The notes beneath the pieces are model-generated. The model ran no database searches, was not told the origin of the DNA, and saw only the letters and a program-made list of their open reading frames with translations. The position numbers and the translations under genes were made by a program. A DNA stretch of 64,000 nt from Botryllus schlosseri. Its lineage: Eukaryota. The stretch spans positions 22,320,001-22,384,000 of the forward strand of contig CM119386.1 in NCBI GenBank assembly GCA_051294905.1. The letters are read 5' to 3'. This document shows, in pieces, positions 1-64,000 of this stretch (position 1 is the stretch's first letter; every line of letters starts with the position of its first letter).

Positions 1-895
1 CGAATTCGATGTACTGTTTCATAAGCGTGTTGTTCATGCCTATCAGTGCTACCGGCAAAGCCTCTGTTAAAAAGTGCTGCTCTGTTCGCACAGCGTCCCT
101 GACGATATGCAGCGCTTGGTCTGCATTCACTTTTTCCATAAGGTGGTGGTACATCAAACAGGCAAAGTCGCAATGTAGGCCCTCGTCCCTGCTAATAAGT
201 TCGTTCGAAAACGTCAGACCCGGCATCAACCCACGCTTCTTCAACCAAAAAATAGCGGCAAACGATCCGCTGAAGAACACGCCCTCAACGCATGAAAACG
301 CAATTAGGCGTTCGGCGTACGTCGACTCACGGTCATGTATCCAACGTAGTGCCCAATCTGCTTTATCGCGCACGCACGGCATAGTATCGACGGCGTTAAA
401 TAGAAAACTGCGTTCGGCCGGATCCTTTATGTACGTCTGAATCAGGAGAGAGTACATCTCCGAATGGATATTTTCCATTGCGATCTGGAAGCCATAAAAA
501 AACCTGGCTTCTGGTACTTGAACCTCACATGCGAACCGTTCGACCAGATTTTCATTGACTATTCCATCGGACGCGGCAAAAAAAGCTAATACATTCGATA
601 TAAATTTTCGCTCGGACCCGTTCAGTTTGCTCCAATCCTCCATATCTTTGCCCAGATCTACTTCCTCCACCGTCCAAAAAGAGGCCACAGCTTTCTTGTA
701 CATTTTCCAGATTTCATGGTACTTGATCGGAAAGATAACAAAGCGCTTCGTATTTTCGACGAGCATTGGCTCCCGTTCCACGTCTAATCGCGTTTCTTTC
801 TTTTCCTGATCTAATTGATCGCTAGAGTCGGCCGATACGTCCGTTCGAAAAGCGGTATCGGAAATGGAAGGACTGTCACAACGGATTGCCTGCAT
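1..895 (-). CDS. RRM2: Ribonucleotide-diphosphate reductase small subunit (class Ia R2), intronless, 3' end truncated by the window edge
   Basis: Manual translation of the minus strand from ATG at 895 gives 298 stop-free codons: MQAIRCDS...[40 protein letters not shown]...[13 protein letters not shown]...[14 protein letters not shown]...[44 protein letters not shown]...MKQYIEF. The di-iron ligands (D, ExxH, E, ExxH) and radical Tyr are present. In-frame TGA upstream at 928-926. The ORF track missed it because the stop lies outside the window. Confidence 0.97.
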
Positions 896-3499
896 CGCGC
901 AAAAATTAACTATAGAAGTTCTCCTTCAAAAACAAGAGAAGTTACATTCGGGAGTGCCGTCACTCCTAATCTCGGTGTCTGCACTCGTTCCTACACATTG
1001 GTGTGCTTTGAAAACGAAGCGACTGCGATCAACCACAATAATCCTCCGTCGATTTAAACATTACGATGAACTCGTGTATTAAAGCTCTTGAACGGACACG
1101 AGAAATCATGTCATAGCATGAGAACACAGTCACTTGACTGATTCCATGTAATGGGAGTGCTGCCGTACAGATTTGGCAACGGCGTAAGCCGTACACTGTG
1201 CACTGTGCAGTAAACCGACCGGTTCACACGGTTAACCGCAGACATTATAACGAACAACACCGCCTGCGACTGCTTATACCATAATTCGATACCGACTCAC
1301 ACCGGAATAGTGTAGGTGTTATATAATCCGCGGTGATAGCATGTTACCTGGCCAGCATAAATACGAGCGTTTCAGACAGCATATAACTATAATGATACCA
1401 CCGACGCACGAAAGTCAGTATAGTAACTCTTACTTCGAATGACAGCAAGCACCCGGTACGGGGACGCAGCTCCTACATAACGTAAGCGTTACAAGCCTCC
1501 AACTAAATGCAGAAACAATAACAAGGCGAAGAAATACGATGAGCAACCGGTACCACTGCCAGTGGCCGTGACCCGAACAACGCATTCATGTTACGCGAAA
1601 AGCTACCAGCACCAATGTATAGTAACCATCAAACGCGCGATCGAACTCAACGCGCTACTTCCTACAAAAGGGTTCCATAGCGGTTCCACACTGACGGCAC
1701 CCAGGCATCCGCGTATGCAAGGCTCTCCTGAAAGCGGCATGTGATAACAGGCATAATAATGAGTTTCTAATAAGCATAGTTGCAGGTATAACAGTACATC
1801 CTCATCGCTACCGACTGATCGCTATTATCCTTCCAGCATTATGGCGCGACACCTGCTGTGAGAGTGATCGACGCGATAACCCATACAGTCGCGAACACGA
1901 TGCAATGCGAGCGATCGGCTGCAAATCTGTTCATTATTGCGGATGCGCACCCTTCTAAGTGATTAGTCTAATAGTAGGCAATCAAACCGTCTTGATTACG
2001 CCATTCGTTATAGCGACATCTTCGTAAACACCTCGCTTTGGCCACAGTATGAATGTGCGCGATATGACATTTACTCGGTATTTATCTGCCACGACAGTAA
2101 CCGTCATTTCACGACGCATCTATTACAAGCAGATCATGACACTGGCCGTGAACTGCTGACAACCCATCTTTCCTCGCCGTTGAGGGATAGTTTAGTAAAG
2201 TCTCTTAAGAATATTGGGATATTGATCGAACTTACTTCTTGGAATTTGTTGATAAAAAATGCTTGGCGGATGTTTAATAGAATAGCATAACGCTAGTATT
2301 ACAACACTGAACACTGATGAGGAGTTCGCATCAATGGAGCCAGAATGATGGGATATGCTATCCTGGATGATACCAATAGTCGTTTAGGGCACGTCGGCAT
2401 GCAGAACCGCTGTACAATGTATAGCTCTATACATTTACCGACCGCTCTAGTTGTACGTGATAGCATTGACGGACTATACAAGTCTCGCATACCTCTCTAC
2501 GTAGAGATCATAACATCGGGGTGAATGGTCGCGTGTGTTTGTATGTATTTTCTTGCCAATACGGTAACGTGTAATGATAGTGTCCATAGCCGAACAAGCG
2601 TCTCCACACTTGTATGTGATTTGTATGTATAACTTTTCGCGTGCGTTTGTAAATATATTAGGAAATTGCCTCGATATATGGCGATCGTGCCGATCCGAGA
2701 AAGATCTCAGAATCGTTGAACGGAATTCTGTCATAGCTGCAGTTCGGGCAATACGCTAATGTGACTGCCTATCGCCGACGAAGTCCCTAAAATAACGCAC
2801 AGCGTATTGTACTGACACCACGATATCGTTTTCCGGCCGCAATCAGCAGTCCGTTCCTATAGAGGAGCACAAACAGTTATCATTATGATAAACGGAATGC
2901 ACGTCCTGATTCCCACGAAGCCACGAGCGGATGACAATCGACATTGCGTCATTGTTGATTATCGAACTACGTCACTATAAAAAAGCTCTTGCCATATAAA
3001 AAATGAACGCAACAATCTGTACATCGTTAACATATCGAGAACCGCGTAAATGATGACCTGTTACATTTGATATGATTATAAAAATGAGTGCCACGTAATG
3101 GAATTAACTTGACACTCTACATTGGTATGTTCTAACTGAGCTTATCCTACAAGTTAGCGACATGACTTAGTGGACTGGTATTGAGCTTTTTCAGCAATTA
3201 CATAACGGCAAATGTTAAAGCCGTAGTACGCCTTTTACAAACGTAACGTGTTAAAATCAACTGCAGTACAGGGACAGTGTCTTCTCAATCATTTTATTCT
3301 CTTGTTGCCATGAGCATCAAGTACTGACTGAAGCATGGGAACTTCGTTTGTTTTAATCACAAATTTGTAAAGACATTCAGCATTGAGGGGGATAGAGCAG
3401 TAACTGTGTGGAATGTACTACATCAGTTACTATTGAATTGTAATTCATCGAGTCACCGACACGTTGTTACCGGCATCATGCAGGTATTCTTTCGCGGAC

Positions 3500-19049: not shown

Positions 19050-22000
19050 ATGAGTGATAGAAAACACCAGTGCGAAGAGGAAACGCCGGCACAGCAGGTC
19101 AGCACCGAGTCGGCAAACAATGAAGAGGAGGAGGCCTCACCAACGACACACGTCTTCGAGCAACCGTGTACTTCTGGCCAGGCCTTGGACGGGGATATTC
19201 GGCGTGAGGACATCAGGCAATGCAACGTCCGGTTCTTTTGGCTTGACGCCTTTGCAGACGAAGGTCGGCAGCCGGGAGTTGTCACGTTAGTAGGGAAAAT
19301 GTTTGATCCGAAGAGCCAAATGCATGTCAGTTGCCGCGTTAGCGTGCGCAATATACAACGCAACGTGTTTTTCGTGCCTCGCGCGAAAAGAGTACACTCC
19401 TCCGAACCTGTGACTATTACCGACGTCTGCAGAGAAGTGCGAGCAACGATCCCTGCGCGTTTTGCAATTGGCAATTTTGTGTCGTCTGTTATCGAGAAGC
19501 AGTATGTATTCGGCGATTCCGATACACCGAAGCATAGCGACCTGTTGCTTATCAGATATTCTTCAAGGTTTAGCCGCTTGCCAAGGGATTTAGTTGGCGA
19601 CACGTTTTGTCGCGTCATCGGAACACAACAGAGTGCTGTGGAATCGCTGTTGCTACGACGGGGACTTCGCGGTTCTTGTTGGATCGAAATGCAACGTTGC
19701 CACAACGACAATTCGCCGGCAGCTGGGTGCAAGCTGCAATTCATTGTCCACTCCCCGATGCAGATCAGACCACTTCCAGATATCCCGCCTCCCCCATTAG
19801 TTGTGATGTCGCTGGCACTTAAAACACGCCGCAATCCGACTAACAGTGACACAGAGGTCATCGCTGTCGCCGGAAGGATTCGCGATAACTTCATGCTGAC
19901 GCAAACAGAAGAAGAGTCGCCTGCGAGCAGCGTGTTCTGTTGCTTGAACGTACCTGCTGATCAGCAGCGTCAGGTGGGATTCCGCGACAATCTCAAGAAA
20001 GTGGAAGGCGGTGTCAGAGTGGCTCCATCCGAAACGTTCCTACTTCGATTTCTCGTCGCAAAAATGAGGACGACAGATCCAGACGTGGTTGTCGGTCACA
20101 ATCTAGAGCGTATTGGCATCCCGTTGATAGACTCCAGATTGAGTGCGTGTCAATTCAACGATCTAACCTCTGTCAGGCGGTTATGCTGCACGAACCCTGA
20201 TGCTTTCGTGTCTCGTTGCGCCGCGCGGGAGTATTTTATAACGTCTGGGCGGATATTGTGTGACGTCGAGAAATTAGCACGGGAAGCAATCACCTGTGAC
20301 AGCTACGGGCTGTCAGATCTCGCGAGAATACTGTTGAAAATCGACACGGTGGACGACTCACTGGAAAGGTATTCTCCTTCACGCAGCGACACAGGCGCTT
20401 GGACTGATGTGCTCCGGTGCGCCTTGCTCGACGCTACGTACTCGCTGAAAATAGCTGACGCGCTTGACGCGGTTCCCGTTGCATACCGACTAAGCACTGT
20501 CGTTGGGACCAGCTTGGCCGGCACTCTGGTTGAGGGTATTGCGGCGAGAACTGACAGTTTTCTGATGCACGCATATCACGCCCGAGGTTATCTCATCCCG
20601 GACAGACCTACTGAGCACATTAGCGCGGGAAGTAGTCGTACGCCAGAGTACCGAGGCGGCTTGGTTATTGACCCCAAAACAGGAATGTACCCGAACTGTG
20701 TCATTGCTTTAGACTTCAGCAGCATGTATGCGTCACTTATCGTAGAGCATAACATATGCTTTGTAACGTCGGACCGGCTACGGAGTCTGGGACCTGACCA
20801 AGCCATATCGTTGCGTGTTGCTGCGCTTACCGGACGGGAAAAACGCGCTGGGGTCTTGCCGGCAGCTGTCGATGAGGTTATCGCGATGCGGCGTCAGATA
20901 CTCGGTCTTATATCGGACGCCGAATCGAATTCCGGTAAGCGCCAACGTTTGGCGTATCACGCGCACGCACTTAAAATGGCGTTTAACAGCGTGAGTGGGT
21001 GTTTAGGGTCGAGGAAATCTCGTTTCCACTCTCTACCCTTGGCTGCCATGATCACTCAGTTTGGCCGGGACACATTGATGCGCACGAAAGAACACGCGGA
21101 GGAACGTGGTTTCGAGGTCATTTACGGTGACACCGATTCTATTTTTATCGACACAAAATGTCCCGATTACGAGCAGGCGGCAGCCATAGGCCGAGACTTT
21201 GCCACCTCTGTCAACGAGTCGTATCGCGTTTTGAGACTGAGACTCGATAGCGTGTACAAACCGTTGATCATCTTCCAAAAGAAGATGTACGCGGGTGTTA
21301 AAAGACGGCCCCCATGCGGCGAACATCGGGCAGAGACGATCGAATCGAAGGGCCTTTTCACGACGCGACGGGATTGCCCAGAATTGGTGAGATCGGTAGG
21401 TCGGTACCTCCTATCTGAAATCATGTCGTGCCAGTCCAAAGACGCTTTGGTTGACAAGATAAACAGGAAGCTCGACGAGGTTGCACACGTTGCTAGGAGC
21501 GGAGGTCACCCCGCGAATATGTACGTCATTCGCAAGCGTCTTAGGAAAGATCCCAAACGGTACATGAAGGTCAATATGCCGGAACACGCAGCAGTCGCAG
21601 TGCGTCTCAACAGGACAACGCAAACCGGGTTCAAAGCGGGCGACGTCGTATCCTATGTCATGTGTGCTGAAGAGTGCGACAGTGAGCTGCGCCCGAGAGC
21701 ACTCAGCATCGAAGAACTGCTTCAAAGTAGTTCCTCCGTCATCGATGTTGAGCACTACCTGTCTAGGCACATGCGTCCGCACATCACGCGACTTTGCGCT
21801 TATGTAGAAGGGATGAGTGCCACGCTTATAGCGGCACGGCTCGGAGTTACCGTCGCGGTGACTGCAAAAGCTAACGTAAAGTCTCAGACAGAGGGATCTG
21901 TTCCCGCACGATTCACGTGTCCGGAATCTGGGAAGGTCATTGTATTCGACAGTAGCGTGTTCGTCGAATCAGCTCCGTCATGGAGACCCAGCCTGTCACT

Positions 22001-22439
22001 GGCTTGCGGACATGGGAACGCGAAATGCGTCAACAACTTTATCACGCACTTCCGTAATCAGTTGGTTCGACAGATTCAAGAAGCTATCGACCGTTACTAT
22101 CTGAATTGGATGATATGCGACGCAGATAGCTGCCGTCACAGGACACGGTTGAGTCCTGTGACGGCACCCGGACACGGACCGAACTGTCCTCATTGTGAAG
22201 TTGGCACCCTGCGTTTGGAGACTTCGGCCAGACAGCTGTATCATCAACTGATGTTCTATCGCAGGCAGTTCGATGTAGATAGTAGCCTCAACGCCATGGA
22301 GGAAGAAGGTGATCGCTCCTTAGCCGCCGATGAAGTGCGTTATCTGCGAGAGTCTTATTTGTCTTTGACTGGTGTCGTGGACAAGTACCTTATGGTCAAC
22401 GGGTTCCGCCAACTTTGCATGGCCGAAATATTTACGTGA
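19050..22439 (+). CDS. POLA1: Divergent, intronless DNA polymerase alpha catalytic subunit-like protein (family B), 1129 aa from the first ATG
   Basis: Colinear with Pol alpha as recalled: FFWLDAF...QPGVVTLVGK...SCRVSVRNIQR, PPPLVVMSL, DPDVVVGHN, GRILCDVEK, YRGGLVIDPKTG, motif A DFSSMYAS (20712-20735), motif B KMAFNSVSGCLG (20973-), motif C YGDTDS (21123-21140), KAGDVVSYVMC, IDVEHYL, and a CTD Cys cluster WMICDADSCRHRTR...CPHC. First ATG at 19050 (aaaATGa); the ORF track starts at an upstream TTG (19005). POLA1-like paralogue; orthology not established. Confidence 0.96.
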   Translation: MSDRKHQCEEETPAQQVSTESANNEEEEASPTTHVFEQPCTSGQALDGDIRREDIRQCNVRFFWLDAFADEGRQPGVVTLVGKMFDPKSQMHVSCRVSVRNIQRNVFFVPRAKRVHSSEPVTITDVCREVRATIPARFAIGNFVSSVIEKQYVFGDSDTPKHSDLLLIRYSSRFSRLPRDLVGDTFCRVIGTQQSAVESLLLRRGLRGSCWIEMQRCHNDNSPAAGCKLQFIVHSPMQIRPLPDIPPPPLVVMSLALKTRRNPTNSDTEVIAVAGRIRDNFMLTQTEEESPASSVFCCLNVPADQQRQVGFRDNLKKVEGGVRVAPSETFLLRFLVAKMRTTDPDVVVGHNLERIGIPLIDSRLSACQFNDLTSVRRLCCTNPDAFVSRCAAREYFITSGRILCDVEKLAREAITCDSYGLSDLARILLKIDTVDDSLERYSPSRSDTGAWTDVLRCALLDATYSLKIADALDAVPVAYRLSTVVGTSLAGTLVEGIAARTDSFLMHAYHARGYLIPDRPTEHISAGSSRTPEYRGGLVIDPKTGMYPNCVIALDFSSMYASLIVEHNICFVTSDRLRSLGPDQAISLRVAALTGREKRAGVLPAAVDEVIAMRRQILGLISDAESNSGKRQRLAYHAHALKMAFNSVSGCLGSRKSRFHSLPLAAMITQFGRDTLMRTKEHAEERGFEVIYGDTDSIFIDTKCPDYEQAAAIGRDFATSVNESYRVLRLRLDSVYKPLIIFQKKMYAGVKRRPPCGEHRAETIESKGLFTTRRDCPELVRSVGRYLLSEIMSCQSKDALVDKINRKLDEVAHVARSGGHPANMYVIRKRLRKDPKRYMKVNMPEHAAVAVRLNRTTQTGFKAGDVVSYVMCAEECDSELRPRALSIEELLQSSSSVIDVEHYLSRHMRPHITRLCAYVEGMSATLIAARLGVTVAVTAKANVKSQTEGSVPARFTCPESGKVIVFDSSVFVESAPSWRPSLSLACGHGNAKCVNNFITHFRNQLVRQIQEAIDRYYLNWMICDADSCRHRTRLSPVTAPGHGPNCPHCEVGTLRLETSARQLYHQLMFYRRQFDVDSSLNAMEEEGDRSLAADEVRYLRESYLSLTGVVDKYLMVNGFRQLCMAEIFT

Positions 22440-41540: not shown

Positions 41541-42317
41541 TATGTGCAATTATTAAGGACGTCGTTTTTTTTTTTCAATGGAACCGTTCACTCATCGTTA
41601 CAGGTAAATTTCACTGCGTGGATTGAGATAATCATCCGCTTTTATTGATATACATACGCAATGACTACCTATTGATTAATGCGTTATAGGAAATTGTGGC
41701 GCCTAGAGGGACCATGCCACAGATACTTCGCTGACCACATAAATCATGCGACGGGGTTCTCAGGTGCAAATGCCTCAGGAGTTTGGTTTATGACGTAGAA
41801 GTTGTGCAAGATAGTCGTTTTTAGGGGGACTGACCAGGTTCTGTTACGGCCCTCCCTCTTACCCGTTGTCTTCATTACAGTCCTTGCAAGGCGAGGTGTG
41901 GCCTATGAAGCACGAGAAAATCTTAAAGGGGACGACGTGAGATAAAGGTGAGGAACCACTGCTCTATAACAACGCGTCAACTGACCCCGTACTGCATCTA
42001 CGTCGTATCACAAAGTCACACGTGAATTTGAATCCTCGATCAATGGTATCCGTCTTTGATTAATGTACGTGCATACATAAATAAGAGGCTGGCAATGGGT
42101 GTCCTGAGTAATTGGGTAGCTCTCCGTCTTGAGCAGATCGATTATCTAGGGACCGTGCATGTCGCTTTGATCATTCACAAGTAGGACCATCGTACGAACC
42201 AGTAACATGTCGCACCCAGGTAAAATAGTCTTTTTTTATGTTAGTTACTCATTAAAACGTGCAAAGGCAACCATCCATTTGACACATGTATGCTCAAGTT
42301 CCTATCGTGGATTTGCT

Positions 42318-42860
42318 GAGAGAGAGAGAGAGGGTCTTTATTTTCATCGAACCAAAATACATATCAAACGGCAGTGATGGTGGTACAGAAAATATGCGTG
42401 CACAGTATTCGGTATTAGATAGGAACGATCGATAAGACCGTGAAGGTCATCTAGTCTGATCACACCAGCATCAGACAGGTACACTTGACTCGGAACAGTC
42501 TGGCTGTGAAACAAAGATTGGTCAGGAAAGGAACATATAAAAAAAGATTAAACAATGGTAGAAAATGATCAATGAAGCAATGTCTGGGCGAGGTAGGGCA
42601 ACAGTGTTAGCGTAACGAAAAGATGTGATCAAGCAGGGCTTTTTTGAATCTATTATAGGGCAATTCACGGATATGTGACGGTAATGCATTCCAGATGATA
42701 GGTACTGAGTAGCCGATAGATCTCTTAGTTAGGTTGCTATTGGGTTGGGGTAAGTAGACGTTTCCTTTAGACGAAGATTTCGTGTAATGGGAACGGACAT
42801 GTTTAGCAGGTATCAAAAAGTCATCAAACACAGACAAAATGGAAACCTGGAAATTACCTT
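42318..42860 (-). mobile_element. 5'-truncated L2/CR1 LINE: ORF2 C-terminus, 3' UTR and (CT)n tail
   Basis: HVRSHYTKSSSKGNVYLPQPNSNLTKRSIGYSVPIIWNALPSHIRELPYNRFKKAL is a typical L2/CR1 ORF2 end. On the minus strand the 3' UTR contains GACTAGATGACCTT, then AATAAA and (CT)7. Confidence 0.8.
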
Positions 42861-45057
42861 AACGGGAAGACCTGACATTCCTTATCCTCACCCTACGTAT
42901 TCGTTCCATTACATAAGGACGCAAAAGCTCGAAATGATCCAAGTCGTGATGGCGCTGCCAAGAACGAGAGGTCTCATACTCGCCTCACGTCGTTTCAATG
43001 ACCTCTGGCAACCGGTATTGCGACACATGCCTCGCGTCACTCTTCGACATTCACGCCGGATGTTTTTGGAGGCTTATTCGGGAAGTTGGTATGTAGTAAA
43101 CTGTGCAATGCGGGGTTTACGAACGTATTTTTTAGACAAGGGGGCAGACACTGCCGAAATCCCGATCTCGACGAAGCGGCATCTGGCATCAATCACCGCG
43201 ATCCGCTATCCTCCGTCCAAATGCCCAGAAGGGAGCGAAGATAGAAGTGACGTAACAAACGGGCTGCCTGACATTTCAACATATATGTTTTTCAGGTAAA
43301 GATTTATACGTTATAACGTTCCGTCTATATTGCCGGGATTGTAATTGTGCGTGCAAAACTATGAACACCTAACTTAGCGAACATCTTACTCCGTAAATGC
43401 ATTGCTCTGAAAAAGTGGATCCGAATATAAATTAATAATTGCTTCGGTCCTTTTTGGTACTCAATATTAGACGGAGTTCTGCTATATCATTTTACGCTCT
43501 GGTATTAGGTGAGATTTGGTGTGTACTGGTTTTACAACCACCTACCGCTACAAAGTAGAGCCATCACTTTGCCTTCCACATTATCAGCGCGACGGCACCA
43601 AGACTCTAATCTGGTCCGCTCCATTTCAACATTGGACGGAGTATAGTAGCCATTTATGCGACCCTTTATCATCGTAGAAAGACATATCTACGGTTTTTTA
43701 TTACGTTTGAATAAACAAACATTAATGAAATAAACTATCACTATATAAATTTTCAAGACTGTTCTTGAAGATGACGCCCGCGACAGAAATATGATGCTTC
43801 AGTGCGTCGCCACTATTGACTGATTTTCGGTAGGCAGCTAATGATGGTTGGAAACTGCGTTAGTCGTGAGATATCGATCAATAGAAAATACGTATAAAAA
43901 TGACCGATGGTTGTGGTCAGAGAGAGGTCATCATGGTTAAGACAGTGACTAATATCCAATCGGTCGCTGTCGCGCGATTAATGAAATACAATGCGATACG
44001 CGATATGCTTTGTCTCGTTATATCCAACCGTATGTGGACATAGGAGACCTTTTCATGAATTACAGGCCATATAAATTTGCAATCGAGCTTGATATATAAA
44101 GTTAACATCGATGAAGCGTGACCAACATGACCAAATGACATTTATTACCGGACATGCCAACTCCCTATGTTCGGAAATGTATCCCAACAATAGTTCCCAC
44201 TCGATAGATTGCTAGAACTTTAAGGTGTTACTGTTTAATTCGAACGTTGGGTTTCAGTTACACCAACGGGCAGTTTTGACTAGGGTGTCAAATACATAGG
44301 CAAAGTCTCAGCTTTTAAGAATACGTGGTACCCCGTATCGAGAGCGTGTAAACTGGGAGAGATCGGTGTTGGAGACACGCCGTATGATATGAGATATACC
44401 CACGTCGTAAGGGTTAACGATTTTAGCTACTAGCCAACTCTATTTTTAGAATAAATTGTCTAACGGCGCCGAAGACAGCTCAATCGTTTCATGGTGTTCA
44501 CAGACAATTAAAAGAAATTATATTTGATAGAGTTAATTCAACATTTTAATTTGATGTGGAGGACCCCAGTATTGTTAGATTTTAACCAAAGCTGGTTTCG
44601 TCCGATCAGGACGAATTGCTAAATTCACGGCGACATAATGGCTTGCGTGAGCGATCGAATACAATTGTTCGATAGCATCTCACTTACAAAATCACGCTAA
44701 CCCAATGCAGAGAACGCTGCATCAAACACCGGATCCTGTGTCTCCTCGACAACGATTAGAAACAATCAATCGTAATAATTAAAAAGTAATACTTTGCAAG
44801 TAATTTGCAATAACGCCGATCACTTTGACGAGCATTATCGTCGTGGTGATATGAACGATGAGGCTACATTCAGACGCAGAGTAGCACTCAAGAACGACCG
44901 AGTCTGGTAACCAATGCACGATCGGTATTGCTAGGGTCTGGCTTGTCTCGTGTACTTTGTTTAGTGTCAGTTTTGGTAGCACGAAAAGGAAAACGCCGAC
45001 ATGTTACCGTGTGCCTCTCGATACCAGGATATTCCAATAGCTTAATTACAACAAGAG

Positions 45058-48000
45058 ATGGCTAACGAAATGTATTTCGCCTTAAAGCATAAAGAGGAGC
45101 TGGTAGCGACATTCACGCGTCGCACCGCCGAACACGTTGAGAGCCCGTGGTGGTGTTTTCACTGTCCGGTCGCGAGTCTACAGTGTACAGTGGCAGACGG
45201 CAGCAGCCATTCAGTCGACATCTACACGGGTGATCGCGTGTGGCAATCCAACGGAAGATATTTGGGACTGGTGGTGTCGCCTGTGGTGAGTGTGCTTTCA
45301 ACATGAATAAAAGTTATGATTGGTTGCATAAAATTCGCCCGCACAAAATTAATCCAGTTTGCACCGCATGAAGGCTAGTTTCTTTTGAAACCAAGTTTCA
45401 ATTAAGTTCTACTACAAGCAACTTATACCTTTCCCAACCGTAACCCTGGTGCGCGTGTCTGGTAAAGCAGTTTTGCGATCGTCATCACGATTTTAGTGTC
45501 TGACGAATCTTAAATATCGCGATAGGTCGAAGGACAACGGCACACCTACAATGTCGAGCAGGTGTCTTCGTTCCTGACTGCAGCAGGCGTGAGTGCTAGT
45601 CGGACCGCTATCGCACCGCTGACTGACGTGGTCTCCCACTTGAACGTAATGTATGTTGATGGCGAGTTGTGTAGGTGCCATGTGTTGTTCGTTCTGACCT
45701 CCCTCTTAAAACATGTTGAAGGTACGAACAGGAGAGCGTAAACGTTCCAGAATCGCTAGACTGGCTATCGGCTTCGCAGCGTTCGTTCGAGCAGAAGAAA
45801 CACAGCGAGCTGGTATGTCGGGGCTACGTCCATTTCGACGAAAAGCCAGCTTTTGGCGAATGGGAGCAGTACCTGACTAGCTCTGTTGGCTATCTGGTGG
45901 CGAACGCTCTCGTGAGCCGAAGTTACAATCAATGGCCGATGTCGGTCGGTGTCCGTCATCACCGAGCGTTGCAGCTGTTCAAGTCACGACGAACGGCTGA
46001 CTGCTTGACAGCGTCCGAGGGCATTGATATTATTCGCACCATACTCGATACCGCGGTGACGGAGTTCCGACTGGCTGGCGATGACCTGAACGCATCTGAA
46101 GCTTTGTGTTGCCTCCTATGTGCAGCGATTGAGGCACGAGCAAATGATGTAGTGACGGCACCGCACATTTTGTGCAAAGGAGAACCGGGCGCGGGGAAAA
46201 CTCTCTTGTGCAAGATGTTGTTCCCGCGCCAAATCTGTTCGAACATACCCCACGACGCACAGGGTGTCGGACAAATGCAAATGGCGACGAACACCAGAAT
46301 TTTAAAGGTGGACGACGCCGGAGCACAATTTTGGCAGGATCATGGTATCCTGTCAGCGATTAAGGAAATGTTCCACGAATACTGGTCCGCTAAAACGCAC
46401 GGCAGTAAACAGTCGAACCCACCTACGGTCGCAGTTATAACTACTAACGAGGACGATCCCTTTCGTTACGTGGTGGAGGCAGGCGACTGTAGATCGGCAT
46501 GGGAACGACGTTTTCTGACCATGAACTTCAAACAGGCTCACGACGGTCCTCCCTGCGTCAAACGGATAAAAGCCGAAACGTGCGAACAAATTCTAGACGC
46601 GCTGGTCCGCGACTTCTGTGACGACGGCACATGTTCACTCGTCGAGAATAGCCGTTGCGCCGCGATGCTGGGTACGATACGCGAGTACCGTAATTGCCTC
46701 GATGAGCCGTCGGTGCAGTGGGGCGTAACCAGCGAATGTCCGTCCGTCCTTGCCGGCCGTGTGCGTCCCGTGTCGGCTTTGTCGTACTCTTCCCGGATTC
46801 TTTCCGCCGATAATGTTGAGGTGAGTACCGTCAATGATACGTCGATGCGATTTCACAATCATGCAAATGTGAGCATATACAGGACAACGCCGATGCAGAC
46901 GCCCTGTGTCTTGAAGCTGCCGCGGTTTTTGACGAGCAGAGGGCGGTCGGCAACGAGCTTGCTTCGTCCGCGAACGGCAGATCTGGACCGAGCCGCGCCG
47001 ACGCGAACGATAATGTGGCCGTCGCAACTCACGTTCACGACTGTCTCGGTTCAGGATCAGACGCATTTGACGACTCGTTGGTAACGCATCGACAATTTGA
47101 TAGTTCCACACAGGACTTATACTATTTTTTAACAAGACTGTCGACATGATGGTGACAGCGGAACGAGCCGCCCTGCACATGCAGGCAGCAGTAAAGCATG
47201 ACGCATCAGACGGCGACGTAATTGCTGCCTCGCCAACAGATGAGTTATCGCCAAATGTGAGTATTAAGTGTAGCGAGTTGCTTGCACTGTAGTAATCCAC
47301 CTGCAACGGCAACGACCGATTACGCAGTTTCGCTCCACTTCGCCGGGGCTGCATGGGGTGGATAGTTGTTTGGCGTACGCGTCTGTATGATATCTGGCAA
47401 CCTAAAACTGTTCTTCCACGGCGCAGCGCTTATTGTTTCGGCATTGTTCGAATAATGTGAGAGTCGCAATAGCTAATTGTTATTACCATTTGTGTTGTTG
47501 GTTACAGATTGTTCTGAACCACGCCGATATCGGAGATCGGATTCTATGTGGATCAGTTACTGATCCATATTTCAATATATTGTTACGAAATCAGTGCAAC
47601 AATAGCTTTGGATCAGGTCCAGATTCAGTAATTTTGCACTTTGGAATATAGCTTTTGGATTGCCATAAATCCTACAGTCGCTCACGCAAAACCTATCCAC
47701 TGTAGCCTCCGCGACGCGGAGGGAAGCTGTAAAATGTATCGTTGCCGTACCATGTTCATTATATACTTGCACCATAACCGTTCACCCGTCGTTATTCAAC
47801 AGCGCGAACGTGGGAAGAAGCGTGCTATCAGGGTCGAAGAAGGCTGTGAGACACGCCCTAAAAAGGTTGGTCAGTCACATTTGTCACTGTCAGGTACCGC
47901 GGCGTAGGTGCAATGCCTTTGACTGATCCAAGTCCCGAACGCTCTAGCACAGGGTTTCTCGGACCTCGCTTGGCCTGGGCCCATTTTACGATTTAAAAAT

Positions 48001-49833
48001 GTGCTGTGGCCCACCGGATATCTTAGAGTCCTATTCCTGTTTAATGCGTGGTAATGGACAGCGTCGGTATGCATGTTTCTCTAAAATATGTACTTTTTTT
48101 TATAACTGGAATAAATATCCTCCAACAAACGATAAACGAAATGTTCTTGGGCCCCTTCAAGCTCCCGCAATTGAGGGTGAGGGTGCGGTACTTACGGCGC
48201 TGACAGATCACAAGCCAAAACTCATACCTATATTGTGTTCGCCCGCTCCTCCAGTCGCGTCGCGCAACACAACGATCAGATATCCGCACAGTGTGATTGG
48301 GACTTTGATGATACTGTTATGGGAATATAATAATTATTCTGGGGAAACATCGAACAATTCATTGGTGAACGGAGTACTACAGAGAAGCGAATAAATAATT
48401 TGTCAATACGCATGATGTACTTGTTATGTCTTGTACCACAACATCTGAAGTCGCCATGTCAGAATATTCCATCCAATGACACAATCAATTCCTGTGACTA
48501 TTTCATTATGTATAATGATTTTCAGGCCGGACATTTTAAACCGTCTCCAAAGAGTAATGCGCTCCGATAAATTATCAATTCATTAAGACTCGTTGCGGTG
48601 GTGCAGGATACCTCCGCAAGAAGTTGCTAACAATGTACAATTATGTCTATTTTAGCTTACAGCAATACGGCCTGACGAAGTAGAGTGAATCTGTACATCA
48701 ATTGCACTCCATAACGATTTCATTGCACACCCCTTTCAACAGCATACGATAGATGACCCTGCTTGAATACTCGGTAACTTCAGTATTATATTCCAGATGC
48801 GCTTCAACTTATGTTTGTTGCTGTCAGCCGTAGATTGACATGGCCATTAGAAAATACGACCGTTTCTCCCTAGCGCTTTCGACTTCTACATGCTGACTTC
48901 ATACGTGCCACTACGTCTGATCAGAGTCTGATGAAAAGCTTTGTGCAGCCTACGTATAATCAGATACCACGAATAGATTTTTAGCGAATAACATACAAAT
49001 AGACGTAACTTTAAATTATTTCTGAACGGTTCTAACTTATCTAAATTGTACATTTTCGAAATGCTCTGTCGCCCACCAGTGGGTCATGGCCCACCCTTTG
49101 AGAACCCCTATTCTAGCATATTTTGCATCCCAACCGGGCCTACATATCCTCGCGTCCATCTGTCACCGAGCTTTGGAAATGTATCGTGAGCGGTTCAGAT
49201 ACTGCCAAACTGGGCCAAGTACATTGTACTGTTGTCATTTGAGCTAATTGGAGGAAACTGACCTAAATTTAAGTTGATCATACCTATTAAATTCAGCGTA
49301 GATCAATGTGATAGGTTTATGTTCGTTGGCTGTTGTTACGCTTAACTCGTAAGTAGAGTTAATTATAGGATGTTATCGATCCTCTAGCTTTGATCGTGCA
49401 ACATCATCAAGCTTGTTAAGCATTTATGACATTGCAACGATTGCTGAGGGACGTATAGAGCTATGTTTCCGTTGAGTGGCCATATGTACATGCGACGCCA
49501 TCCACTGCTGTATCATGTTAGTTACGTGCTCAGTCTTACTGCCCCTGAACCAGCATCCAGCGTTTCGCCCTGATGTATCTGCTTTTTTTCGATTATAAAT
49601 ATTCCGTGCGGGAGGGAGTCGCTGCCGACAAGGCGTAGAACCGCTGACATTCTGTCAGTTGTTAGTTCCGTTGTTCTTTACAGGTAGCGGAGCCTGGTGA
49701 TGTGTCGCAGGCTCATGTATCAACGCGTGTGATCGACGACGCATCGCCTGTGCAAGCGATAGACGGACCCTGTCAATCGACTCCGGTGCGGCCCGAAAAC
49801 CGGCCGCAATCACGTGTGCGTATAGACAACTGA
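45058..49833 (+). CDS. Spliced gene for a virus-type superfamily-3 (parvovirus NS1 / CRESS Rep-like) helicase with an unknown N-terminal domain and an acidic low-complexity tail
   Basis: Walker A GEPGAGKT (46179-46202), Walker B ILKVDD (46299-46316), B'-like SAKTHGS, motif C VITTN (46434-46448) and Arg finger AWERRF (46497-46514). Proposed exons: 45058-45285, 45526-45650, 45722-46820, 46883-47080, 47137-47256, and less certainly 47803-47865 and 49684-49833. All junctions are GT..AG and frame-preserving. The helicase core is high confidence; the exon model is moderate. Confidence 0.8.
47950..49110 (+). mobile_element. Non-autonomous hAT (Buster/Charlie-like) element, within the putative last intron of the helicase gene
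   Basis: Ends CAGGGTTTCTC / GAGAACCCCTA, TSD CTCTAGCA/TTCTAGCA (7/8). Same family as 10816-12112. Confidence 0.8.
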
Positions 49834-63929: not shown

Positions 63930-64000
63930 GTACATCTCTAAAGCTCGCTGTCACGCACGCGGTAATAGCGGTCATCGTAAATATCCGCCTTCTTTATTGT

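Follow-up and report, generated by a model that had tools for sequence, protein, structure and literature searches.

An intron-bearing SF3 helicase with a degenerate HUH domain in Botryllus schlosseri: candidate replication gene of a large tyrosine-recombinase element

The window analysed here is a stretch of 64,000 nucleotides from Botryllus schlosseri (assembly GCA_051294905.1, contig CM119386.1; G000:C16:22320001-22384000 in our coordinates) within a 495-Mb genome. It contains a gene, predicted to be spliced, for a virus-type superfamily 3 (SF3) helicase, whose N-terminus appears to be a degenerate HUH domain split by two introns. On balance, we consider this gene probably to be the origin-binding replicative helicase of a large DNA element mobilised by a tyrosine recombinase. 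The first-pass annotation of the window, made from the sequence alone, had proposed an intronised viral helicase that was either domesticated or part of a nuclear virus or element. The viral kinship and the first two introns were borne out by the predicted fold, the paralogues and the pattern of selection. Among the proposed alternatives the evidence favours an element, because the helicase core has at least 53 matches in the genome, many of them broken or partial, because a sister copy resides on a mobile unit, and because helicase copies are linked to recombinase and replication genes.

According to its predicted structure, the core encoded by exon 3 is an SF3 helicase. The model, based on a 31-row alignment (pLDDT 90.2), had its best PDB matches in papillomavirus E1, which ranked at the top, and in the Rep protein of adeno-associated virus (AAV). 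The model of an intronless relative matched E1 with a Z-score of 12.7 over 183 residues (root-mean-square deviation 4.1). Four SF3 motifs span about 110 amino acids and are conserved across our alignments A1 and A3 (Table 1). In the Pfam search of exon 3, PF00910, PF01057 and PF19263 did not rise above the cut-off, and only AAA matches below the cut-off were obtained. A sequence search of the PDB returned no SF3 family match, a word-index protein search gave no match, and two scans of viral_contigs and one of metagenome_contigs revealed no related locus. The look-alikes of exon 3 in Atlas were DUF5906/RNA_helicase clusters at 0.93-0.96. The earlier assignment to SF3 was therefore upheld by the fold and the intact motifs, but not by a match to the Pfam profiles.

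As judged from profile alignments, the N-terminus encoded by exons 1 and 2 is a degenerate HUH domain without nicking residues. Exon 1 aligned with residues 2-50 and exon 2 with residues 54-94 of the N-terminal domain of intronless, virus-like Reps from the same genome and from metagenomes (hhalign scores of 25.4 and 20.6, against maxima of 13.6 and 11.9, respectively, in 30 shuffles). Since the two exons align contiguously to the HUH domain of these relatives, both introns split a domain that is continuous there. Within exon 1, WWCF resembles motif I and YLGLV stands at the position of motif II. The metal-binding histidine motif was absent from every exon 1 row that reaches it (seven of eight rows), and the catalytic tyrosine motif was absent from all nine exon 2 rows. 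Both nicking motifs are present in most intronless relatives. The first-pass annotation had seen no HUH nickase motif in the N-terminus, which holds for an intact motif, but it had missed that the domain itself is a degenerate HUH.

The intronless relatives in the genome (L023, with a 563-aa frame, L024 and L030) share approximately 30% identity with the window gene. Their family has no Pfam match and about 48 library relatives. The full HMMER library gave 49 matches, most of which share the HUH-like motifs of the intronless relatives; P0013 was rejected as a relative since it proved to be a repeat artefact. One relative among the 20 looked up came from Styela clava. The model of L023 (pLDDT 86.4) matched full-length AAV Rep68 over ~450 columns, and it also matched parvovirus NS1, CRESS Rep and E1, with 9-19% identity to solved or modelled members. 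We calculated a tree of 39 rows, consisting of 10 rows from the genome and 29 of the 49 library matches (excluding fragments and P0013), with the root not fixed. Seven intron-bearing rows fell on one side of a branch (91/87), apart from three intronless rows, and no library protein was placed among them. The top library match, P0003, which also lacks the nicking residues, was dropped as an orthologue because the tree places it outside the intron group. These results suggest one origin for the intron-bearing clade. Moreover, because the intronless form is widely spread, we infer that the viral form came first and that intron gain followed.

Two of the intronless relatives, L023 (835-5500) and L030, located on G000:C3 at 8.43 and 9.06 Mb, are virus-like inserts in which a glycine-rich frame precedes Rep in the same orientation. 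These frames may represent a capsid gene; in PDB searches they hit linkers only or had no match. Near the window gene, no counterpart of the L023 capsid-like frames was found.

To compare introns, paralogue DNA was read around exon 2 in 12 copies (7 + 5), which fall into about five subfamilies. The GT and AG of intron 2 occurred at an identical codon position and phase in all 12 paralogues. For intron 1 (phase 0), both ends were kept in six of the 12 and the acceptor in ten, the remainder being deleted or degenerate. Intron lengths ranged from ~55 to 240 nt, and exon 2 had a constant length of 125 nt in most copies. On this comparison, introns 1 and 2 are beyond chance, and the conservation of intron positions that the first-pass annotation wished to see checked was found among the paralogues of this genome.

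Codon comparisons further indicate that the helicase family is under purifying selection. Between subfamilies, synonymous sites were saturated (pS 0.75-0.83), whereas protein identity was 45-52% for exon 3 and 28-38% for exons 1-2. The window gene and its paralogue L021 shared 47% amino-acid identity over 325 codons (pS 0.79), and 35% identity in exons 1 and 2 (pS 0.76). We assigned 7 changes to the window copy versus 30 to its broken sister, a count that is inflated by a frameshifted stretch of the sister copy.

All seven exons of the first-pass annotation were recovered at the coordinates in Table 1, each open in a single translation. The exon chain has phases 0, 2, 0, 0, 0 and 0, and all introns run from GT to AG, with lengths of 240, 71, 62, 56, 546 and 1818 nt. 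The GC content was 0.54-0.61 in exons versus 0.34-0.45 in introns, and the reading frame of exon 3 is open from 45720, as had been claimed. Exons 4 to 7 remain candidates that draw on splice signals, GC content and the restriction of interspersed repeats to introns 5 and 6. A paralogue search found no homologue of these four exons except a weak match to exon 7 (E 0.018), and a second paralogue comparison gave none at all. In paralogue L021, a donor site occurs at a comparable position and the low-complexity tail is unrelated. Hence, exons 1-3 with introns 1-2 stood up to paralogue conservation at saturated synonymous sites, whereas the seven-exon gene as a whole was not confirmed beyond exon 3.

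RNA reads were mapped from four runs, covering 3-13% of each run, and none of the four placed a read on any exon of the gene. The stretch had no single-copy control gene, and the reads on repeats were mostly 95-99% alike, so that divergence may cost reads; none of the predicted junctions was seen in RNA. In a transcribed repeat at 42300-42833 of the window, RNA reads revealed GT..AG joints of 57 and 60 nt, which shows that introns of such size are spliced in this organism. A 181-aa open frame at 42754-43299 had no Pfam match, and only its first 30 residues matched elsewhere, within a repeat.

The sister unit provides evidence of mobility. Paralogues L021 and L022 reside in a unit of 32,022 bp on C1 and C5, of which the longest block is 99.6% identical, and which carries a helicase and a recombinase-like gene. 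Its two insertions lie in different copies of a miniature inverted-repeat transposable element (MITE) and share one 6-bp target site; the unit is bounded by (C/T)TAGAG direct repeats and imperfect inverted arms. An empty version of this target site lies in the MITE within intron 6 of the window gene. The sister unit has thus been recently mobile in a site-specific manner. A diverged copy of its left end occurs at C1:23040820, after telomere-like repeats, with helicase L031 21 kb downstream; helicase and recombinase-like gene are arranged there as in the 32-kb unit. No capsid-like frame was found in the complete unit. Approximately 11 kb outside the 32-kb unit, at L044/L043 (G000:C5:20.796-20.803 Mb), lies another gene set, which by its motifs (polymerase, ATPase, integrase, capsid) we take to be Polinton-like.

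The window gene itself lies in a block of ~110 kb, from the end of the ribosomal DNA (rDNA) at C16:22315403 to a telomeric run at 22425057. Five open-frame genes occur in this block: the primase large subunit, the small subunit of ribonucleotide reductase (RNR), DNA polymerase (Pol) alpha, the helicase and a tyrosine-recombinase-like gene. The Pol alpha copy scored 866 bits to the other Pol alpha of the genome versus 648 bits to the best PDB chain, and it carries a zinc-finger domain. The copy of the RNR small subunit on C10 has introns. The recombinase-like gene had an Atlas integrase cluster as a look-alike at 0.93, and a longer-protein search with one of its frames gave no match; its frames carry residues that we take to resemble the catalytic R-H-R-Y motif. 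A Pfam scan of 144 frames (at least 80-85 aa; the window and part of its flanks) detected no virion genes, yielding only RNR2, a reverse-transcriptase relic and one match below the cut-off. A translated comparison with six other regions revealed no additional shared or virion genes.

Elsewhere in the genome, the copies of these extra replication genes are relics. Outside the rDNA and telomere arrays, 14 of 28 recombinase loci are found less than 50 kb from a helicase match, a zone that makes up 0.57% of the genome. Of the nine extra copies of Pol, primase and RNR2, eight have such a match at a distance of less than 70 kb (0.76% of the genome). This count is weakened by the fact that three of the nine are the window block and five a single C3 cluster; 37% of the sequence there lies less than 70 kb from a helicase anyway. 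Relics adjoining other helicase copies include a Pol at 1.6 kb and an RNR2 at 0.6 kb (less than 2 kb corresponds to 0.03% of the genome).

Table 1. Coordinates of the helicase gene, its motifs and neighbouring genes (window positions unless a contig is given).
Feature	Position	Strand	Remarks
Exon 1 (ATG; 76 aa)	45058..45285	+	First half of degenerate HUH domain
Intron 1	45286..45525	+	Phase 0, GTGAGT..TAG, 240 nt; ~55 nt in most paralogues
Exon 2 (125 nt)	45526..45650	+	Second half of HUH domain; terminates within motif III
Intron 2	45651..45721	+	Phase 2, GTATGT..AAG, 71 nt
Exon 3	45722..46820	+	Helical (predicted oligomerisation) domain, then SF3 helicase
Walker A, GEPGAGKT	46179-46202	+	Conserved in alignments
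Walker B, DD	46311-46316	+	Conserved in alignments (KVDD)
Motif C, ITTN	46437-46448	+	Conserved in alignments
Arginine finger, RRF	46506-46514	+	Conserved in alignments
Candidate exon 4	46883..47080	+	Acidic low-complexity tail; open frame, splice signals and GC content only
Candidate exon 5	47137..47256	+	Open frame, splice signals and GC content only
Candidate exon 6	47803..47865	+	Basic stretch resembling a nuclear localisation signal; in short gap separating two interspersed repeats
MITE-like repeat in intron 6	47950..49120	.	~82% identical to dozens of copies
Candidate last exon (7)	49684..49833	+	Stop and ATTAAA
RNR small subunit (RNR2), intronless extra copy	1..925	-	371-aa open frame, extends beyond window start
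Pol alpha catalytic subunit, intronless extra copy	19050..22439	+	1147-aa frame; 39-42% identical to C11 copy
Primase large subunit, extra copy (485 aa)	C16:22317087-22318541	-	Just before window start
Multi-exon zinc-finger tyrosine-recombinase-like gene	G000:C16:22384129-22388297	+	Starts right after window end (pointer 63990..64000)

Several further observations concern the surroundings of the block and the main replication genes. The main Pol alpha (1455 aa), another PolB (1075 aa, probably Pol delta), both primase subunits, the Pol B-subunit gene and the RNR large subunit (803 aa) each matched within one long open frame, so that the main replication genes, located on G000:C11, C5, C13, C14 and C2, appear intron-poor. 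TTAGGG repeats are present in the genome. On G000:C30 (17.4-kb tandem units; L067-L069) and at C16:22.22-22.24 Mb, rDNA units bear a tyrosine-recombinase-like gene in their spacer, and on C16 a short telomeric run comes after this gene. A recombinase element of this kind may carry the rDNA unit as its cargo. Inside the rDNA cluster, G000:C16:22275510-22306000 (L057-L060) contains a Helitron-like Rep/PIF1 frame (C16:22.30 Mb) together with frames that are presumably R2-like retroelements. Beyond the block, at G000:C16:22425057-22450067, an interstitial telomeric run precedes a satellite with a 566-bp unit, which is present in 43.6 copies (99% match).

In the mechanism that we propose, an ancestor of the element would have captured the Rep of a small single-stranded DNA virus, from a family that is still present, without introns, in the genome. 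Introns would have been gained once, ahead of the radiation of the family. Excision by the recombinase would release the element in circular form, and the same enzyme would return it to the chromosome at a short target site. At the origin, which it would bind via the nuclease-dead HUH-type domain, the helicase would form a hexamer and then unwind the circle. Synthesis would be primed by a Pol alpha-primase of mixed element and host subunits, and RNR2 would raise the supply of deoxynucleotides. Nicking would thereby become dispensable, as in papillomavirus E1 and polyomavirus large T. We also suggest, tentatively and as something that may well prove wrong, that such elements form an undescribed class: giant, capsid-less, self-replicating animal DNA elements that are moved by a site-specific tyrosine recombinase and replicate as circles with a converted single-stranded DNA virus Rep and captured Pol alpha, primase and RNR subunits, in an independent replay of the route from Rep to E1 and large T. 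A literature search found no description of this gene family or element in the texts covered; the sequence files of the survey PMC11071296 might hold this Rep family.

A number of results weigh against a replicative helicase of a recombinase element. Besides the clustering behind the linkage count, the inflated count of changes on the sister and the lack of RNA reads, the 32-kb unit had no match to Pol, primase or RNR2. Its terminal 40-mers went unmatched on C16 even when 11 mismatches were allowed, and its ends do not occur in the 1.33 Mb searched around the window copy. Comparing flanks, looking for split halves of MITEs and scanning for terminal motifs on C16 likewise revealed no element ends for this copy. 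The five genes of the block are dispersed across 70 kb of DNA rich in repeats, in orientations that vary between loci. The Pol copy deviates from the usual sequence of region II and motif B, the recombinase-like gene had no Pfam match (DUF3435 included) on separate exon frames, and many recombinase copies, in rDNA and telomere arrays, are without a helicase match. Finally, a genome search found no extra copy of the primase small subunit, the RNR large subunit or PCNA, and none of the three genome matches of the Pol B-subunit family is close to a helicase copy.

Some of these results would be expected if the animal had captured a viral Rep once and now kept it for its own use, for instance as a dominant-negative antiviral factor or in the upkeep of rDNA or telomeres, with introns gained, nicking lost and the family shaped by birth-and-death duplication. 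Such a domesticated family would fit the missing element ends of the window copy, the intact frames under purifying selection, the single intron-bearing clade, the low density of genes, introns that harbour old MITE insertions, and a locus that adjoins rDNA and telomeric repeats. However, the majority of the 53 matches are broken or partial, the unit that carries the sister copy has moved recently, recombinase-like and replication genes are repeatedly linked to helicase copies at separate loci, the reads mapped from the four host RNA runs included none on the gene, and no orthologue was found among the 49 library matches. We regard domestication as improbable, though deserving of real weight.

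Clearly less probable is that the block represents an integrated, partly decayed large nuclear double-stranded DNA virus with spliced genes, similar to nimaviruses, whose virion genes are too divergent or fragmented to be seen. A helicase, polymerase, primase, RNR and recombinase together form a typical gene set of large viruses, and the genes of the block resemble it. Moreover, the text of PMC10871703 describes endogenous nimaviruses that enter telomere repeats or 28S rDNA by zinc-finger tyrosine recombinases, and some of whose genes have introns. Against this stand the meagre yield of the 144-frame scan, the lack of further genes shared with the six compared regions, and a complete 32-kb unit without a capsid-like frame. 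The helicase gene could also be passive cargo, or a neighbour gathered in the same repeat-rich regions, without any part in the replication of an element. The clustering on C3, the varying gene orders and the existence of recombinase units without helicase would agree with this. We nevertheless consider it very unlikely, given that relics of Pol and RNR2 lie within 2 kb of helicase copies, that two diverged units share the arrangement of left end, helicase and recombinase, and that purifying selection has been long.

Compared with known systems, the element reading sets the window gene apart in several respects. It is not part of a Helitron, since its helicase belongs to SF3 rather than to PIF1 (SF1), and the Helitron-like frame at C16:22.30 Mb is separate. 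A Polinton/Maverick was rejected because the polymerase is a Pol alpha with a zinc-finger domain, and because integrase, packaging ATPase and capsid were not found among the 144 frames. Cryptons have a tyrosine recombinase, terminal direct repeats of 4-6 bp and a proposed circular intermediate (PMC3212892, in whose main text the word helicase does not occur). Terminal direct repeats were likewise seen on the 32-kb sister unit, while no ends were found for the window copy. Unlike Cryptons, the units here measure at least 32 kb and have inverted arms, a fixed target site and a helicase. Giant size, variable cargo and a gene resembling tyrosine recombinases are shared with the Starships, including Enterprise (PMC10175614). 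In contrast to our case, they are fungal and carry DUF3435, which had no match here on separate exon frames, and neither an SF3 helicase nor a replication set is named in the part of that article covered here. Endogenous nimaviruses share the traits mentioned above, but as complete viruses they possess capsid and envelope genes. No such gene was found here (divergent or short-exon genes could be missed), and the Pol alpha of the block is of host type. In the texts covered, enRep-Myo9 of guinea pig (10.1101/572735) and the planthopper ToEVEs (PMC10636211) are described as coding sequence of viral origin that selection has maintained in spliced genes. In those cases the viral part forms an exon of a host gene or of a fusion, whereas in the window gene the viral domain is itself interrupted by two introns and belongs to a multicopy, mobile family. 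The case thus shows introns positioned within a viral domain, and it points to large animal recombinase elements that carry part of their own replication machinery.

The closest likenesses are to viral initiator proteins. Like the Rep and NS1 proteins of parvoviruses and CRESS viruses (AAV Rep68, parvovirus B19 NS1, circovirus Rep), which are the best structural matches of the intronless relative, the family combines an HUH-fold N-terminus, a helical middle domain and an SF3 helicase. It differs by its identity of only 9-19% and the lack of a Pfam match, and the window gene differs further by its missing nicking residues, its introns within the HUH domain and its low-complexity tail. A simple parvovirus or CRESS insert, in which a capsid gene would stand next to Rep in a genome of ~2-6 kb, was rejected because no match to the capsid-like frames of L023 lies near the window gene, and an active HUH Rep because the metal-binding histidine and catalytic tyrosine motifs are not intact. 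Papillomavirus E1 and polyomavirus large T consist of an SF3 helicase behind a nuclease-dead, HUH-derived domain, and the two presumably arose through a shift in which a Rep of the nicking, rolling-circle kind became a helicase that binds the origin but has lost its nuclease activity. For E1 and large T, we know of no near relatives at hand from both sides of that shift. Their Rep ancestry is stated in the text of PMC11071296. E1 was the top PDB match of exon 3, although the window gene shares only 15-16% identity with E1 and large T, and is chromosomal, beside a recombinase and host-derived replication genes. The window gene is an SF3 member that, by analogy, would work like E1 or large T. 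Since it groups with a separate invertebrate and metagenome Rep family that retains the nicking motifs, the loss of nicking was probably independent of E1 and large T. With an intronless form that has the nicking motifs and a spliced form without them in one genome, at ~30% identity, this shift can be studied directly.

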